Assembly: GCA_019419955.1 (NCBI GenBank)
Contig: JAHZIB010000002.1
Coordinates: forward strand, 23,825-87,824
Length of the DNA: 64,000 bases
DNA from: Clostridiales bacterium
GTDB taxonomy: Bacteria > Bacillota > Clostridia > TANB77 > CAG-508
Direction: 5' to 3'
In this document: one piece after another, positions 1 through 37,738 of the stretch
Numbering within the stretch: the stretch's first letter is position 1
How the letters are laid out: every line of letters starts with the position of its first letter
Made by a program: the position numbers and the translations under genes
The notes under the pieces: generated by a model
The model's input: only the letters and a program-made list of their open reading frames with translations
What the model was told of the DNA's origin: nothing
Databases searched by the model: none

Positions 1-1414
1 ACAATTTCAAGCAATGATGCAAGATGCAAAAGCACATAAATTTGAAAGAGTTGTCGTAAAAGATGTAAGTCGTTTTGCAAGAAATACAGTAGATTTATTA
101 CAAAGTATAAGAGAATTAAAATCTTATGGAATACAAGTAGACTTCTTAAATAATGGCGAAGTTATGGAAGGTGGTTCTGAATTTATACTAACTATTTTAG
201 GTGCAATGGCACAACAAGAGAGTGCTAATATGTCTAAAAGAGTTAAATTTGGGAAGGATATTACAGCCAAAAAAGGACGAGTTCCTAATTTAGTATTTGG
301 TTATGATAAGATCCCAGATGAAAAATATATCTTAAAAATAAATGAAGAAGAAGCCAAAATAGTTAAAGAAATATTTGAAAGCTATGTGTATAAAGGAATG
401 GGAACAACAAAAATCGCTTGGGAATTAAATGATAAAGGAATAAGAACTAAAAAAACAAAATCAAAATGGGTACAAACTTCTATTGTAAGAATGCTTAAAA
501 ATCCAATATACACAGGTAGAATCACAAATAAGAAATCCGAAATTACAGACTTTATAACAGGAACAAGAAAAGATTTACCAGAAGATGAATGGATTATAGT
601 AGAAAAGCCAGAAATGAGAATTATATCGGATGAATTATTTAATAGAGCACAAGACATTTTAGCACAGAGGTCAAATGAATTTAAACTAAATAGTAAACGC
701 GAAAAAACAGAATATGTATTTAGTACACTTATATATTGCAAACATTGTGGTTATTCGTTTAGAAGAATAAAAAGAAAATATACGACTGATGGACCAGAAT
801 ATATAAGATGGGTATGTAGCGGAAGAAATTCGATGGGTGTAAACCATTGCCCTAACACAACAGTAATAGATGAAGAAGAACTATTAAATGCAATTAAAGA
901 ATATTTAAAAAGTATAATTTCTAATAAAAAGAATTTTATGAAAGCAGTTGAAAAAGAGTTTGAAAAAATAACAGCATTAAGAGAAAGTAACGAAAGAAGT
1001 GAAGAAAGTTTATTAAAAGAAATAGAAAAAGTAACAGTAAAAAAGCAAAAATATATGGAAATGTTCCAAAATGAAGTAATCAATATACAAGAATTAAAAC
1101 AATATACAAATCCATTAAATGAAGATATTGCAAGACTAGAGCGAGAATTAAAACTAATTACATCAGAAATAAAAGAAAAAGATGTATTAGAAAAAGAACT
1201 AGCAAAAACAATAAGTACAGTTGATGATGTATTAAATAATGAAACAATTACAAATGCAATGTTAAAAACAATAATAGATGTAATAGAAGTTGATAGTGAT
1301 TCGAATGTAGAAGTAAGACTAAAATTATTAAATGAAATTGGAAGTCAACCTACAGTAATTACTAATTTTGAAGATATAAATTCTACCGTTACGAAAAGTA
1401 ACATCGGTACATAA
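1..1414 (+). CDS. Large serine recombinase, N-terminus cut by window edge
   Basis: Frame is open from nt 2. Resolvase-core remnants (VVVKDVSRFARN, ILGAMAQQESANMSKRVKFG), recombinase domain, Cys-rich zinc ribbon (CKHCGYSF...WVCSGR...HCPN) and a long coiled-coil tail. Confidence 0.9.
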   Translation, partial: QFQAMMQDAKAHKFERVVVKDVSRFARNTVDLLQSIRELKSYGIQVDFLNNGEVMEGGSEFILTILGAMAQQESANMSKRVKFGKDITAKKGRVPNLVFGYDKIPDEKYILKINEEEAKIVKEIFESYVYKGMGTTKIAWELNDKGIRTKKTKSKWVQTSIVRMLKNPIYTGRITNKKSEITDFITGTRKDLPEDEWIIVEKPEMRIISDELFNRAQDILAQRSNEFKLNSKREKTEYVFSTLIYCKHCGYSFRRIKRKYTTDGPEYIRWVCSGRNSMGVNHCPNTTVIDEEELLNAIKEYLKSIISNKKNFMKAVEKEFEKITALRESNERSEESLLKEIEKVTVKKQKYMEMFQNEVINIQELKQYTNPLNEDIARLERELKLITSEIKEKDVLEKELAKTISTVDDVLNNETITNAMLKTIIDVIEVDSDSNVEVRLKLLNEIGSQPTVITNFEDINSTVTKSNIGT

Positions 1415-1577
1415 AGATGTAAGCGAAAGATTATTAAAAATAAGCCCTTGCTTGGCTGCAGAAGTCAGAGCTATTTTGGATGAAAACAAAGCAGAGAGAC
1501 ACATAAGAGGTGGATTAGCAACAAAAAGAAAATATAGCCATCATTGTAATGTTCACTCCTCTGATAAAGCTGGATAA
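1398..1577 (+). CDS. spoIIID: spoIIID 3' segment (C-terminal half of the SpoIIID sporulation regulator); split gene, no start codon
   Basis: The frame is open only from 1380 (TAA at 1377-1379) and has no ATG. Translation TSVHKDVSERLLKISPCLAAEVRAILDENKAERHIRGGLATKRKY matches the recalled B. subtilis SpoIIID STVHKDLTERLPEINPDLANEVKEILDYHKSVRHLRGGEATKLKY. Stop at 1575-1577. Confidence 0.75.
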   Translation, partial: VTSVHKDVSERLLKISPCLAAEVRAILDENKAERHIRGGLATKRKYSHHCNVHSSDKAG

Positions 1578-6730: not shown

Positions 6731-7966
6731 TTACTCATATTTTTTTATTAAAATACTAGCATTATGTCCTCCAAATCCTAACGAATTTGACATAGCAAAT
6801 TTCACATCTATATTTCTGCCTTGATTTGGTACAATGTCTAAATCGCATTCTTCGTCTGGTACTTTATAATTTATTGTAGCAGGCACAAAACCATCTTTAA
6901 CTGATTTAGCACAAACCACTGTTTCAATTCCACCTGCCGCTCCCAATAAATGTCCTGTATTGCTTTTAGTAGAACTTACCATGACTTTCTTGCTTGCTTC
7001 TCCAAGTGCTGTTTTTATTGCAGATGTTTCAAAAGAATCATTTAAATGTGTAGATGTTCCATGAGCATTTATATATGTTATCTCTTCTGGCTTTACATCT
7101 GCTTCTTGCATTGCAAGTTTCATAGCTCTTGCTCCACCTTCTCCTCCTGGAGCTGGCGAAGTTATATGGTATGCATCAGAAGTAGCACCATAGCCAACCA
7201 CTTCAGCATAAATTTTTGCTCCTCTTCTTTTAGCATGTTCTAATTCTTCTAAAACAACAATTCCTGCACCTTCTCCCAAAACAAAACCGCTTCTTTCCTT
7301 ATCAAATGGAATGCTTGCCCTATTTTTATCTGTTGCTTGAGAAAGTGCTTTTATATTAGTAAATCCAGCTACTCCTATTTGTGTTACTGCCGCCTCTGTT
7401 CCTCCTGCTAAAACAACATCTTGATAACCATGTTTTATCATTCTAAAACTCTCTCCAACACAATGTGTACCTGAAGCACATGCAGTAACCATAGAAATAG
7501 ACTCTCCTTTTATGCCTAAATCTATAGCAATATTACCTGATGCCATATTTCCTATAGTCATAGGAATAAACATTGGTGAAACTCTATCTGGCCCTTTTTG
7601 AACTAAGCTACTTATTTCTCTTTCCATTGTTTCCAATCCGCCTATTCCAGTGCCTACAATAACCCCAATTCTCTCCATATCTTCTGTATCTTTATTCAAT
7701 TCACTATCCTTCCAAGCTGCTCTAGCTGCTACTATAGCATATTGAGAAAATAAATCCATCCTTTTTGCACTTCTTTTATCAAAATGCTCCTCAGCATTAT
7801 ATCCTTTTACTTCTGCAGCAAGCTTCACTTTAAAATCTGTTGTATCAAAATGTGTAATTAAATCAATTCCACACTTTCCATTTTTTATTCCTTCCCAAAA
7901 CTCGTCAACATTATTTCCTATTGGAGTAATAGCTCCAAGTCCAGTAATAACTACTCTTCTTTCCAT
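6731..7966 (-). CDS. fabF: 3-oxoacyl-ACP synthase II
   Basis: Active-site ACASGTH, HGTSTHLND and GHLLGAAG motifs. Confidence 0.95.
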   Translation of the reverse strand: MERRVVITGLGAITPIGNNVDEFWEGIKNGKCGIDLITHFDTTDFKVKLAAEVKGYNAEEHFDKRSAKRMDLFSQYAIVAARAAWKDSELNKDTEDMERIGVIVGTGIGGLETMEREISSLVQKGPDRVSPMFIPMTIGNMASGNIAIDLGIKGESISMVTACASGTHCVGESFRMIKHGYQDVVLAGGTEAAVTQIGVAGFTNIKALSQATDKNRASIPFDKERSGFVLGEGAGIVVLEELEHAKRRGAKIYAEVVGYGATSDAYHITSPAPGGEGGARAMKLAMQEADVKPEEITYINAHGTSTHLNDSFETSAIKTALGEASKKVMVSSTKSNTGHLLGAAGGIETVVCAKSVKDGFVPATINYKVPDEECDLDIVPNQGRNIDVKFAMSNSLGFGGHNASILIKKYE

Positions 7967-8000
7967 TTGTGATTTCCTTTCTATTAAATTTTTTATAAAA

Positions 8001-8097
8001 CTAAATTGCTAGGCAAAATTTAGTAAAAAACCGGAAACATACTTGGTGTATGTCGAGAATTTTTTATCTAAATTTTAACAACGCAAGATGCAGTTTG
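8001..8097 (+). repeat. Structured intergenic repeat, copy R2 (between fabG and fabF)
   Basis: Head TTGCTAGGCAAAA; arms TTTAGTAAAAAA / TTTTTTATCTAAA; core CCGGAAACATACTTGGTGTATGTCGAGAA; tail TAACAACGCAAGATGC. Confidence 0.8.
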
Positions 8098-8111
8098 TTC
8101 TTAATTTTAAA

Positions 8112-8852
8112 TTACATTACCATACCACCATCAACATTAATAACTTGCCCTGTAACATATGAACTATCTTCTGATGATAAAAACTTTACTATCCTTGCAA
8201 CCTCTCTTGGTGTTCCCATTCTTTTTAGTGGAATCTGTGCATTTATTCCTTCTTTTACTACATCTGATAAAACATTTGTCATATCTGTGTCGATAAATCC
8301 AGGTGCAATAGCATTTACTAAAATATTTCTACTTGCAACTTCTTTCGCTAAACTTTTTGTAAAGCCAATTATTCCTGCTTTAGATGCAGAATAATTTGTT
8401 TGTCCTGCATTCCCCACAATACCAACAACTGAAGAAAGATTAATTATCCTACCAGACTTTTGTTTTAACATATATGGAATTACATTTCTTGTTACATTAA
8501 ATGTTCCTGTCAAATTCACATCCAATACAGCCTCAAAGTCTTCTTTTTTCATTCTCATTATAAGACCATCCTTTGTAATTCCAGCATTATTAATAAGTAT
8601 ATCTATCTTGCCAAACTTTTCTATTGTTTCTTTTACCATACTTTCGCATTCTTCAAAATTTGCTACATCCGCCTTCACAAATTCACAACGTACACCATTC
8701 TTTTCAATTTCCTTTTTTAAATCATCCATTCCATTATGCTCACTTCTGTAATTTACAGCAATATCAAAACCATTCTCAGCAAGTTCTAATGCAATTTCCT
8801 TTCCTATTCCTCTCGTTGCACCTGTTATTAGTGCCACTCTATTTTCATTCAT
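8112..8852 (-). CDS. fabG: 3-oxoacyl-ACP reductase
   Basis: SDR with TGATRGIG, NNAG and YSASKAG motifs. Confidence 0.95.
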   Translation of the reverse strand: MNENRVALITGATRGIGKEIALELAENGFDIAVNYRSEHNGMDDLKKEIEKNGVRCEFVKADVANFEECESMVKETIEKFGKIDILINNAGITKDGLIMRMKKEDFEAVLDVNLTGTFNVTRNVIPYMLKQKSGRIINLSSVVGIVGNAGQTNYSASKAGIIGFTKSLAKEVASRNILVNAIAPGFIDTDMTNVLSDVVKEGINAQIPLKRMGTPREVARIVKFLSSEDSSYVTGQVINVDGGMVM

Positions 8853-8940
8853 TTTTACTTTCCTTCCTTTCTTAGGGACAAATTTGTTTAAAAACTATTT
8901 AACCCTATTCTCCTTATATACTATTTTTTTGGCAGCATTT

Positions 8941-9879
8941 TTATTTTAAAACAGCCATAGCCTTCTCCAATGACTCGACACTCTCTATATTCAAAATGTT
9001 TGTATCTCTCCATCTTTCTTTACAAACCTTTTTTACAAAACCTGATAGAGTTTTGCCAGGTCCAATCTCTACAAAAGTATCAACTCCCATTTCCAGCATA
9101 GTTTCTATGCTTTTTCTAAACTTTACAGGATTTACAACATGGTTTGCCAATATTTCCACCATATTATCTCCTTTTTTATACATAAGTCCATCTAAATTTT
9201 TTATAACTTTTATCTGGCTATCAAAAAACTCAATTTTGTCTAATTCCTTTTCTAATTCCTCTGCTGCTTTTTTAAGTTTTTCTGTATGAAATGGTCCACT
9301 GGTTTTTAGTTCCACCACCTTTTTTGCACCAGACTCCTTCGCAAGTTCCATTGCTCTTTGTACAGCATTTTTTTCTCCTGAAATCACTACTTGCCCAGGG
9401 CAGTTATAATTCACAGCTCTTACAAAACCTTCTTTAACCTGTCTACAAACATTTTCAACCTGTTCATCTTCCAAACCAATAATTGCAGACATTAGCCAAT
9501 CTCCTACTGGAGCTAATTCTTGCATTAGTCTTCCTCTAGTTCTAACTATTCTTGCTCCATCTTCTAATCTAAGAACTCCTGCACATGTCAAAGCCGTATA
9601 TTCTCCCAAACTCAATCCTGCTGATGCAATAGGCTTAACTCCCTGCTTATTCAAAACTTCTAAAATTGCCATACTCATAGCATATATTGCAATTTGCGTA
9701 TTCTTTGTCTCATTTAACACATCTTGTGAAGAATTATACGTCAGTTCTTCCACATTTTCACCTAATGTAATATCAATTTTCTTATAAACATCTCTAGCTT
9801 CTTCATACTCTTCATAAATATCCTTCCCCATTCCAACAGTCTGAGTCCCCTGCCCTGGGAATATGTATCCTATCTTCAT
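8941..9879 (-). CDS. fabD: Malonyl-CoA:ACP transacylase
   Basis: GQGTQ and active-site GLSLGEYTAL motifs. Confidence 0.95.
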   Translation of the reverse strand: MKIGYIFPGQGTQTVGMGKDIYEEYEEARDVYKKIDITLGENVEELTYNSSQDVLNETKNTQIAIYAMSMAILEVLNKQGVKPIASAGLSLGEYTALTCAGVLRLEDGARIVRTRGRLMQELAPVGDWLMSAIIGLEDEQVENVCRQVKEGFVRAVNYNCPGQVVISGEKNAVQRAMELAKESGAKKVVELKTSGPFHTEKLKKAAEELEKELDKIEFFDSQIKVIKNLDGLMYKKGDNMVEILANHVVNPVKFRKSIETMLEMGVDTFVEIGPGKTLSGFVKKVCKERWRDTNILNIESVESLEKAMAVLK

Positions 9880-35330: not shown

Positions 35331-35618
35331 TCAATCTTCACTCTCTTCAGTGACACTTTCAAAATCAATGCTATCAATTCTACCAGTAACCAGTAAATCA
35401 TCAGTCGTCATTTCTTCCAACTTCAAATTAAATCCATTAATATTTAATATACCTATATAAGTATTCACTCTGACAAAATAATCCTGATATTCTAGAATTC
35501 CTCTATAATTTTCTATAAGCATTCGTTCAAACCCTGTAATAGTTATCTTGGGGTTGTTGGTACTCAATTCAACGGGTATTTCTAAAATTTCCTCTATTTT
35601 CCTTGCTTTTCTTCTCAT
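35331..35618 (-). CDS. yqfC: Sporulation protein YqfC
   Basis: 95 aa, YabP/YqfC family (ITITGFERMLIENYRGILEYQDYFVRVNT). Confidence 0.85.
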   Translation of the reverse strand: MRRKARKIEEILEIPVELSTNNPKITITGFERMLIENYRGILEYQDYFVRVNTYIGILNINGFNLKLEEMTTDDLLVTGRIDSIDFESVTEESED

Positions 35619-35644: not shown

Positions 35645-36051
35645 TTAATTATCTCCTTCAAATTCATCCAAACTCTTAAACTCATATCCCATATTCTTTA
35701 TTTCCTTTATACAATAATCTAAAATATTGCTATTATCCTTTGAAGTACTATGAAGTAACATAACTTCTCCATTATGAACATTATCTATAATTTTCTTTTT
35801 TCCATATTCTTCTCTTCCTTGTTTATCCTCATCCCAATCATCATATGCAAATGACCACATCACAGTTTTATATCCAAGTGTATTTGTATATTCAATTGTT
35901 CTCTCACTATATTCTCCTTTTGGTGGTCTTATATATTTCATTTCATACCCAAATTTATCATACATTGCAGTATGAAGTTCCATTACATCTTTTTTTATTT
36001 CTTCATTTGAACATTCTGGCATCGGTATGTGATTTGTTGTATGATTTCCTA
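35645..36051 (-). CDS. pdaA: pdaA 3' segment (delta-lactam-biosynthetic de-N-acetylase, C-terminal ~135 codons)
   Basis: The frame stays open upstream of the track ATG (KKLGNHTTNHIPMPECS...). Matches the PdaA C-terminal half (IRPPKGEYSE, VMWSFAYDDW, MLLHSTSKDN). Confidence 0.85.
36038..36051. repeat. Left copy of the 14-bp direct repeat TGTATGATTTCCTA (element/pdaA junction)
   Basis: Identical to 43500-43513; encodes GNHT on the minus strand. Confidence 0.9.
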
Positions 36052-36111: not shown

Positions 36112-37738
36112 TTATTTCGTCCTAACGTTAGGATAATTTTGAAATGTAAATTTAATTGTTATATTTTTTTCTTTGTCAAATTCAATTTTTTCAATTAACT
36201 TTTCTAATATCATTTTATTTTGCTTTTCCATTTTTAAGAACTCAGTTGTAATTTGTTTTATTTCTTTAAAATCTATTTTTGGTAATTTTTTATTGTTTTC
36301 TTCAAGTTGTGTTTCTGTCTCTTTTATTTGTTTCAAAGTTTTATTTCTTTCTTTTTGCTTTTTTTCATAAATAATTTTAAAATCTTCTATTTGTATAATT
36401 TTATTTATTTTGTCTTGATATATTTCTTCAATTGTATTTTCTATATTTTTTAATTTTTGTTTTAATTCTTGTAACTTTGTTTGCAATAAATTATTTTTGC
36501 TTTTTGCTTCTTTTTCTGCTTGTTCATAAATCTGTTTTATTTCTTTTTCAGAGAAATTAATTTTTTGTATTTCTTCCTTTATTTTTGCATTTACCACTTC
36601 TTCTATTAAATTTGCTGAAATTTGTTTATTATCACATAATGAACTATAATTATTTCTTTTAGAGCAAATAAAATATGTAGCTCTCCAAACTGTTCCATTT
36701 TTTCTTTTTTCTTCTCTACATCTTAAAGTTGCTTTATTTCCACATTCTCCACAATACACGAATCCTTTTAGTGGGTGATCATATTTCCTATCTCTAGTTT
36801 TGGTATATCCATTTAATTTATCTTGTGCTTTATTCCAAGTTTCAATATCTATTATTGGCTCATGCATATTTTCTAGGACAATATATTCTTCTTTTTTTGT
36901 GCATCTTACTTTTGCTATTTTATGGCTTACTTTTTGAAATTTTCTTCCTACTACACTTCCGAAGATAAACTTCATTTCTTAAAATTTTTCCTATTTGTGC
37001 CCTTAGCCATACATATTTTCCATTTGGATTTACACTTTTTCTCTTCATATACGTAGGTATTTTTAAATATATTGCTGGTGGCTCTATCTCTCTTCTATTT
37101 AATTCATCTGCTATTTTTATTGTTGACATACCTTTATTTACATACATATCAAATATTTCTTTTACAACTTGTGAACTATATTCATCAGGTACTAAATGAT
37201 TTTTTATTTCTATATCTTTTTTATATCCATATGGTGGAATTCCTGCTTGATATTCTCCTTTTTCGATTTTTCTTTGTTTTACACTTTTAATTTTGTTTGA
37301 TATATCTTGTGCATAATAGTCATTAAAACTTAGCTTAAATGTTAAAAATTGTAAACCATCTGGCTTTATTGTATCTACATTATCTCCAATTGCTATGTAC
37401 CTTATATTATTCGCAGGTAAATATCTTTCTAAATAATATCCAGTGTCTATATGATCTCTACCAAATCTTGATAAATCTTTTGTTATAATACAATCTATTT
37501 TTTCATCTTCTATGTCTTTTAACATTTTCTGAAATCCTGGTCTGTTAAAATTTGTACCTGTATAACCGTCATCAACATATTCTCCTGCTTCTATTAGTTC
37601 TTCATGACCTAATATATAATTATCAATAATGTCCCTTTGATTTTCTACACTTTCGCTTTCTCGGTCATCTCCATCTTCACGAGATAACCTTATGTATTTT
37701 GCCACTCTTATATTTCTATAACCATTTACTCTATTCAA
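36112..37738 (-). pseudogene. Large serine recombinase interrupted by a one-nt frameshift (near 36958-36964)
   Basis: N-terminal ORF (TTG start, RBS GAGAGGTG) has the resolvase domain (YIRLSREDGD..., DCIITKDLSRFGRD). It ends out of frame at ...ILRNEVYL. The second ORF continues GSVVGRKFQKV..., with a zinc ribbon (CGECG...) and coiled coil. The junction reads TAT CTT C GGA AGT. Confidence 0.8.

Follow-up and report, generated by a model that had tools for sequence, protein, structure and literature searches.

The left edge of the DNA considered here, a 64,000-nucleotide stretch of contig JAHZIB010000002.1 from a Clostridiales bacterium (the whole of which is referred to as the window), is occupied by the 3' part of a large serine recombinase (LSR) gene that runs directly into a 3' part of spoIIID, a mother-cell regulatory gene of sporulation. 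The LSR gene forms the right end of a 10,843-bp element that splits spoIIID and that, judged from its gene content, is an integrative mobilisable element. The features at this junction, in which attB, attL and attR denote the empty host attachment site and the left and right joints between host and element, are as follows:

1..1414, plus strand: LSR gene, 3' part, codons 57–526 and stop codon (open reading frame [ORF] reading and identity to the L002 protein)
1385..1409, no strand: element-side arm of attR (ACCGTTACGAAAAGTAACATCGGTA), conserved in 75 species loci and 105 metagenome contigs
1407..1411, no strand: core GTACA of attL, attR and attB (comparison of the three sites)
1407..1577, plus strand: spoIIID, 3' part, codons 39–93 (VHKDVSERLL...SSDKAG) and stop codon (PF12116 and match to the intact allele)
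1412..1436, no strand: host-side arm of attR, which is the right half of attB, within the spoIIID coding sequence (matches the L001/L010 intact allele)

Frame 3 from 1380 to 1577 has no start codon and translates as ILPLRKVTSVHKDVSERLLKISPCLAAEVRAILDENKAERHIRGGLATKRKYSHHCNVHSSDKAG followed by a stop, within which lies KVTSVHKDVSERLLKISPCLAAEVRAILDENKAERHIRGGLATKRKY. The Pfam SpoIIID profile PF12116 matches this fragment over positions 35–80 of 82 (E 9e-20, 71 bits with a cut-off of 27), and TIGR02844 matches it over positions 35–79 with 66 bits, a shortfall from the full-length cut-off of 111.5 that is expected for half a gene. The first-pass annotation had recognized a C-terminal half of SpoIIID without a start codon at this position, and the profile search that it had proposed assigns the fragment to that family. 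It had also placed the 3' end of an LSR gene in another frame, and ORF reading agrees with this placement; the TAA stop at 1412–1414 is read directly and lies inside host spoIIID DNA. The start of the spoIIID fragment, which had been put at 1380 or 1398, has to be moved, as the host-derived sequence begins at 1407 (GTA CAT AAA GAT) and the '..KVTS' that precedes it is encoded by the element arm and merely mimics spoIIID. The spoIIID part is identical to the matching stretch of an intact 93-aa SpoIIID from the same species, on which PF12116 is annotated as well, and comparison with this intact allele places the split at codon 39–40. No second spoIIID-like sequence is present in the 64-kb window. 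Downstream of the fragment, on the minus strand, are fabI and the acc/fab operon.

The LSR part in the window corresponds to residues 57–526 of the 526-aa protein encoded on L002 (L numbers designate the contigs and loci used for comparison), with 100% identity. The Resolvase catalytic, Recombinase and zinc-ribbon Pfam domains are all present, and the N terminus of the full-length protein, MKIAAYCRVSTEKE, bears the catalytic RVS serine. The best PDB matches are recombinases of conjugative transposons and of SP-beta, the best full-length match being the structure of SprA (YokA; E 7e-13), and the top NCBIfam matches, XisF and CcrB, fall far under their cut-offs. By these comparisons, no curated family is closely related to the LSR.

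The missing half of spoIIID was found on contigs of the same species, which were located by an exact look-up of the FabI protein and, for the far side, through a 244-aa gene beyond spoIIID. The contigs reached through FabI are 99.7–100% identical to the window over 11–12 kb. An intact 93-aa spoIIID stands next to fabI in L001, L003 and L004 (about 12 of the 21 contigs read), and the LSR is present as in the window in L002, L005 and L006. The conspecific contigs match the window at 99.7–99.96% identity up to 1396–1407, and intact and interrupted forms share identity from 1407. L011, which is another part of the ENA contig of L002, contains the spoIIID 5' half, attL and the whole element, placing the 5' half 10,843 bp upstream in same-type contigs (L011/L002). 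An element that reaches left of the window and splits spoIIID, as had been predicted from the window, is thus present. When attL and attR are joined in silico, the exact intact allele of the conspecific strains is obtained; the coding sequence of a sporulation gene is split, and joining its two parts restores the ORF.

Taken alone, the window holds no 5' half and could be read as a decayed spoIIID relic, or an assembly chimera, beside an unrelated recombinase. This reading is refuted by the 5' half itself, which independent contigs carry 10.8 kb upstream, intact and in register. The comparison with related genomes proposed in the first-pass annotation yielded intact alleles at the same locus in conspecific strains (L001, L003, L004), and the fragment is therefore no decayed relic. 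Furthermore, more than 180 independent assemblies share this joint, the LSR has its full length, and the joined halves yield intact genes, which together leave a relic or a chimera with next to no credibility. The same species also holds a variant element at the same site (L009, 19294–20735), which is 95.7% identical over the left 9 kb, differs in its right part and has a faint PIN-domain ORF ahead of the recombinase region, indicating that multiple element variants circulate within one species.

The merged L011/L002 sequence and the intact alleles define attB as ...AAAAGTACC GTACA TAAAGATGTAAGCG, attL as ...AAAAGTACC GTACA CACCGAAGTAACATTCCAGAACGG and attR as CCGTTACGAAAAGTAACATCG GTACA TAAAGATGTAAGCG. 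The actual repeat of both joints is the 5-bp GTACA, which replaces the core GTACATAAAGATGT suggested from the window. The element-side arm of attR, ACCGTTACGAAAAGTAACATCGGTA, is the presumed binding arm of the LSR and constitutes the left arm of the reconstructed attP, a site of ~52 bp with dyad symmetry. The symmetry of 23 reconstructed attP sites peaks at CA (mean 16.3 of 26 complementary positions; 3.7–7.3 for neighbouring centres), and attB is far less symmetric than attP. These results point to CA, at window positions 1410–1411, as the crossover dinucleotide. One locus, L072, has GTCCA in attL and GTACA in attR, and these joints are consistent with exchange at CA. It was initially thought that the crossover was AC (attP centre CGGT-AC-ACCG); however, this reading was dropped after the symmetry scan and the L072 joints favoured CA. 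In the excised circle of the window-type element, the LSR ORF would extend by 8 further codons, based on the merged sequence. The 5' leader of the LSR gene, ATGTAACAGAACGAAATTAAAGATAC (L011, 20158–20185), is more than 90% conserved in about 70 loci and is similar to the right half of attB (ATGTAAGCGAAAGA); this leader may be a half-site for autoregulation by the LSR.

The distribution of the element was probed with a scan for the LSR in one genome per species, which gave 155 relatives; the locus counts reported here concern the best 80, all of which are at least 87% identical. The hosts of these 80 are gut metagenome-assembled genomes (MAGs) labelled uncultured Clostridium sp. or Clostridia bacterium, and they include Clostridium sp. 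CAG:343 and two closed 1.6–1.7-Mb chromosomes. The LSR is followed directly by SpoIIID residues 36 to the end in 78 of the 80 species-representative loci, through the joint ...GTAAC..C. GTACA [TC]AAAGA..., the exceptions being L032, which stops at a contig end, and L083, in which the LSR is joined to a second element. Similarly, the element-arm pattern was found on 105 metagenome contigs of human and other animal gut origin, 105/105 of which run on into spoIIID. The element occurs in representative genomes of at least 77 distinct hosts, and the family is, on the evidence of these joints, strictly specific to the spoIIID site. Hundreds of short proteins were retrieved with the N terminus of SpoIIID as query, and 17 of the 27 that were fetched, from many different hosts, end in the attL signature ...STVH[KT][DE]V[TI][LF].... 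Both spoIIID halves lie within reach in 23 loci, which are referred to as complete elements and have sizes of 4.6–11.2 kb. Joining these loci gives an in-frame, full-length SpoIIID in 22 of the 23, and the exception, L072, reflects a wrongly picked core.

Several individual loci depart from this pattern. In L083 (11540–11700), the LSR end meets, instead of spoIIID, the left arm of another element that is not identical to the first (GTACA CAAAGATGTAACACTAAACAACGGTAG), and this attP-like joint indicates two family members in tandem inside spoIIID. Single-base insertions or deletions occur in the spoIIID 3' half next to the element in L089 (about 6250; one of the 80 loci) and in L157 (about 625; one of the 105 contigs), and these could be sequencing errors or first signs of decay. 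The LSR in L047 (5459–5620) adjoins a divergent SpoIIID-like C-terminal half (VHLDVTKRLLILSPITARKVQKIL..., 55% identity) that could be a paralogue or belong to a distant host. Finally, L030 and L050 are contigs of 3.4 and 4.1 kb that carry the element and a spoIIID half under the names of Melainabacteria and Bacilli MAGs; these names probably reflect binning errors rather than true host range.

The window-type element has a G+C content of 24.8%, compared with 29.5% in its flank. From its left end it encodes the read-through tail of the spoIIID 5' fragment, TnpV (PF14198, E 1.5e-33) and a Mob_Pre relaxase, followed by a minus-strand block with an extracytoplasmic-function (ECF)-like sigma factor and putative membrane proteins, and then by two ribbon-helix-helix proteins and several ORFs without assignment. 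At the right end are a 155-aa helix-turn-helix (HTH) protein, a 59-aa ORF termed p59, and the 526-aa LSR, which reads outward across attR. There are no phage structural or lysis genes among the element proteins in a comparison with PHROGs, and no type IV secretion genes in the element. Because an LSR and a Mob_Pre relaxase are combined with no type IV secretion genes and with evidence of horizontal transfer, the gene content identifies an integrative mobilisable element and not a prophage remnant. The reading of the element as a prophage-like skin is set aside. All 23 complete elements have in common only the LSR (88–100% identity) and p59 (67–100%); the relaxase is found in 13 of them and TnpV in 2. 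Small family members carry variable cargo (L045, 8026–9450; L077, about 7870–9270; L087, 9252–9728). One such cargo is a protein that combines Schlafen/AlbA_2, HATPase_c_4 and HTH domains, and another a recurrent 156–182-aa protein, both of which are defence-like. A ToxN/AbiQ-like assignment of the 156–182-aa protein was considered and not established, as Pfam gave no match and PADLOC a single weak match to AbiQ (E 1.7e-4, L087 protein).

Evidence for horizontal transfer comes from the comparison of elements with their hosts. L015 and L016, which belong to other species, carry elements that match the window-type element at 99.7% and 98.4% identity across the full 10.8 kb, whereas their flanks align to the window type within spoIIID only, at 78–83%. 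Across 77 loci, the host 3' halves are all distinct, with a mean nucleotide divergence of 20.6%, and the LSR genes differ by 0–16.8%; the two sets of distances are almost uncorrelated (Spearman 0.13). LSR divergence is below 1% in 11 pairs with a host divergence of 10–25%, and, in the opposite case, a 10.6% difference separates the LSRs of hosts that are nearly identical. The near-identical elements in different species and the uncoupled distances indicate that the insertions are recent, recurrent and horizontal, and the sequences thus portray an element that is actively mobile between species.

These observations could be explained by a plain integrative mobilisable element that uses spoIIID, a conserved and vegetatively dispensable gene, as its attachment site. 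The insertion would then knock out spoIIID, so that carriers sporulate poorly or never; the element would persist through frequent horizontal transfer and beneficial cargo, and would excise for transfer only. The relaxase, TnpV and the variable cargo with its defence-like genes agree with this account, as do the near-identical elements across species, the uncoupled element and host phylogenies, and an insertion that is polymorphic within the species, about two thirds of the contigs being intact. Furthermore, the excised form was not found in metagenome or viral contigs. However, an element present in at least 77 hosts and 105 metagenome contigs is hard to square with the loss of a core transmission trait, and all LSR elements whose behaviour in mother-cell sporulation genes has been studied by experiment excise during sporulation (PMC4191935, PMC5595907, PMC10747680). 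A conserved sigma-E-like motif also stands at a fixed position before the sole conserved accessory gene, p59, as described below. The plain-element account is consequently viewed as a possible but rather doubtful explanation.

The accessory gene p59 encodes a protein of 59–65 aa with an acidic tail, is conserved as a coding sequence in 65 loci, and lies on the strand of the LSR gene, 0.15–5 kb upstream of it. There are 844 database clusters of p59, none of which is annotated. Two terminator-like hairpins flank p59 in the window-type element. The first-pass annotation had called for inspection of the recombinase promoter for sigma-E-type elements, and the outcome is divided: the LSR gene itself is preceded by a sigma-A-type promoter (TTGCAA-17-TACAAT with a TG extension) that is conserved across the family, and the sigma-E-like motif stands before p59 instead. 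This motif, TAATATT-14-AATAGTAT, is located 24 nt before p59 and agrees with the B. subtilis sigma-E consensus (ZHATAXX-14-CATACAHT) at 7/7 and 5/8 positions. A relaxed sigma-E pattern, for which about 1.9 chance matches are expected per 64 kb, matches the 20.7-kb locus at this motif only, and no sigma-70-type match was found before p59 on its own strand. Of 63 loci, 47 have the motif equally far from p59, and 60 contain the -10 octamer. A similar AATACAAT element is located 14 nt after TTCTAAT in the upstream region of the host spoIIID. The -10 element of the host gene was at first taken to be CATAGTTT, and this was replaced when a comparison of 23 hosts showed a conserved GTTCTAAT-14-AATACAAT. 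The host upstream region (L010, 10760–10830, and 22 other hosts) also contains an inverted repeat, GAATAC...GTATTC, just before the ribosome-binding site, which is possibly an operator or an RNA hairpin.

The element is inserted at the codons of the recognition-helix motif STVHKD, and its LSR recombines attP with attB inside spoIIID at the CA of GTACA. The arrangement of these genes and sites suggests a mechanism in which excision is timed to sporulation. First, the LSR would be produced constitutively from its conserved sigma-A-type promoter. Next, upon sigma-E activation, p59 would be transcribed from its conserved sigma-E-like, mother-cell-type promoter and, in the small elements, possibly also by read-through from the spoIIID promoter. 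There p59 would act as a recombination directionality factor and make the LSR recombine attL with attR, so excising the element from the mother-cell chromosome. The resulting excision would rebuild spoIIID and allow the mother-cell cascade to proceed, while the forespore chromosome would retain the element. Finally, excision in vegetative cells, together with the relaxase, would permit transfer to new hosts. Sporulation-timed excision by a constitutive LSR and p59, rebuilding spoIIID in the mother cell, is favoured because a constitutive LSR combined with a small factor under a mother-cell promoter is the arrangement shown for C. difficile's skin element and for SP-beta, and it is judged somewhat more probable than not. 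The element probably must excise for its carrier to form a spore. Excision under sigma-E alone, which the first-pass annotation had put forward, is plausible in view of the motifs before p59 and the LSR gene.

Several points weigh against this mechanism. The directionality-factor role of p59 is proposed from just its conservation, size and position; the protein has no match in Pfam or PHROGs, and its AlphaFold model is of low confidence (pLDDT, the predicted local distance difference test score, is 63.5). Some LSRs, such as TnpX of Tn4451, require no directionality factor. The sigma-E-like pattern was relaxed after the data had been seen, a different -35 is present in 16 of the 63 loci (10 of them with a CATAGTAT -10), and the promoter of the host spoIIID is not an exact match to the relaxed pattern. 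As the insertions are recent and recurrent, the intact gene halves are unusable as evidence of selection for reconstitution. Additionally, the attP joint, sought as a 52-nt degenerate pattern, gave 0 matches in metagenome and viral contigs; a control search with the left arm alone gave 105 matches, all of them attR, and the assemblies are therefore uninformative on excision either way.

It could also be envisioned that excision occurs stochastically or with growth phase across the population, so that the element functions as a reversible switch of sporulation competence in a form of bet-hedging. The apparently constitutive LSR promoter and the common occurrence of both occupied and empty sites in one species are compatible with such a switch, and the yin element in yabG of C. 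botulinum provides a precedent, with excised and integrated subpopulations being present at all time points (PMC10747680). In contrast, LSRs are normally unidirectional without a directionality factor, the upstream region of p59 has a sigma-E-like motif and no sigma-70-type match on its strand, and excision in the germ line loses the element unless it is re-integrated. A stochastic switch is thus considered improbable. Returning to sporulation-timed excision, its broader implication is that mobilisable elements of a horizontally spreading family have come to control the earliest transcription-factor checkpoint in the mother-cell programme of a large clade of uncultured gut Clostridia, with p59 and its sigma-E-type promoter gating the rebuilding of spoIIID; opinion on this wider proposal is evenly balanced.

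The interrupted sporulation genes covered in reviews and primary papers are sigK, spsM, spoVFB, spoVR, gerE and yabG. The studied LSR elements in mother-cell sporulation genes excise in sporulation, by means of an LSR made constitutively and a small directionality factor under regulation (PMC5025042, PMC4191935, PMC5595907, PMC10747680), and expression of spoIIID is mother-cell-specific and sigma-E-dependent in organisms other than this one (PMC517825, PMC5025042). It was initially thought that spoIIID was undescribed as a target, which does not hold, as Galperin et al. 2022 (bioRxiv 10.1101/2022.02.25.481979) record a skin-like element that interrupts spoIIID of Ruminiclostridium cellulolyticum H10. 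Literature searches on spoIIID as an element target found this one-line annotation note for a single genome and nothing further. According to their Table S3, the H10 element is 64.7 kb in length and has a 511-aa recombinase beside the N-terminal fragment, on the opposite strand, whereas the elements described here are 4.6–11.2 kb in length and have the LSR beside the 3' fragment, on the same strand.

The closest parallels are found among the elements with experimentally studied excision. Similar to skin in sigK (SpoIVCA/Skr in B. subtilis; CD1231/CD1234 in C. difficile), an LSR at the element edge splits a mother-cell regulatory gene, a short core recurs at both joints, and the ORF is restored when they are joined precisely. 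In the C. difficile skin the recombinase is constitutive and timing comes from the small directionality factor (PMC5025042), a layout that the promoters here match. In contrast to skin, the present element is not phage-derived, is mobile between species, and has an excision that is proposed from sequence. Moreover, in both B. subtilis and C. difficile, SpoIIID is placed upstream of the excision of skin, which means that excision here has to be controlled independently of SpoIIID. The gin element in gerE of Bacillus cereus ATCC 10987 (GirC/GirX), in a gene for a mother-cell transcription factor, is a small, non-prophage element made up essentially of an LSR and a small directionality factor (PMC5595907), to which the 4.6–4.9-kb members of the present family are similar in size and make-up. 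However, gin lacks mobilisation genes and shows no sign of having spread recently between species, and gerE acts late whereas spoIIID acts early. SP-beta in spsM (SprA/SprB) is an active mobile element as well, and it excises at the time of sporulation through an LSR and a directionality factor of 58 aa (PMC4191935, PMC5499854), but it is a 134-kb functional phage with distant sequence similarity and a different target gene.

The window-type element also resembles Tn4451/Tn4453 (TnpX, TnpV, TnpZ) in having an LSR, TnpV (PF14198) and a Mob_Pre relaxase. TnpX is a protein of about 700 aa that needs no directionality factor, has a GA crossover and uses many insertion sites. In contrast, the LSR here is weakly TnpX-like (35 bits to the TnpX N-terminal domain, 2mhc), a strict single site and a CA crossover are indicated, and TnpV is missing from most family members. 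With 105/105 contigs and 78/80 loci in spoIIID, the insertion pattern argues against membership in the Tn4451/Tn4453 family. The present family is an unusually widespread addition to the intervening elements of sporulation genes, carried on a mobilisable element rather than a prophage.

A second LSR is encoded elsewhere in the window, next to the remains of a polysaccharide deacetylase gene, and the relevant features are as follows:

36112–37738, minus strand: second LSR, as two overlapping ORFs, 36920–37738 and 36112–36975 (ORF reading)
35645–36022, minus strand: C-terminal part of a polysaccharide deacetylase (Pfam profile 72–124, from near GNHTTNH), adjoining the 3' end of the second LSR
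35331–35618: yabP, with the deacetylase fragment just upstream

The split of the second LSR is a possible frameshift, and the enzyme may be defective. No N-terminal half of the deacetylase, with a TFDDG-type motif, is present within the window. The junction of the second LSR with the deacetylase looks like the same kind of architecture as the spoIIID split. The proposal of two recombinase-gated sporulation genes within 45 kb is weak, as the second LSR is broken and the deacetylase 5' half is not in the window. Near the second LSR, also on the minus strand, are a tyrosine integrase (40251–41246) and a HipA_C-domain protein (42431–43324), and the region 40251–43324 suggests another integrated element or island.

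The known interrupted genes (sigK, spsM, spoVFB, spoVR, gerE, yabG) act in the middle or late part of the mother-cell programme. The split of spoIIID is no single-strain curiosity, as one family with the same 5-bp core is found in at least 77 hosts and 105 metagenome contigs. The LSR, the 52-bp attP and attB together make up a new, well-defined system for site-specific integration, of which many natural variants exist. Importantly, if excision is tied to sporulation, a mobile element would control entry into the SpoIIID/sigma-K programme in many abundant uncultured spore-formers, and spore formation, and hence host-to-host transmission, would be gated one tier earlier than in any studied case. 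The same recombination unit would then also serve transfer between species. Such a mechanism would bear on how sporulation capacity is read from genome sequences, since split genes go undetected or are labelled pseudogenes.

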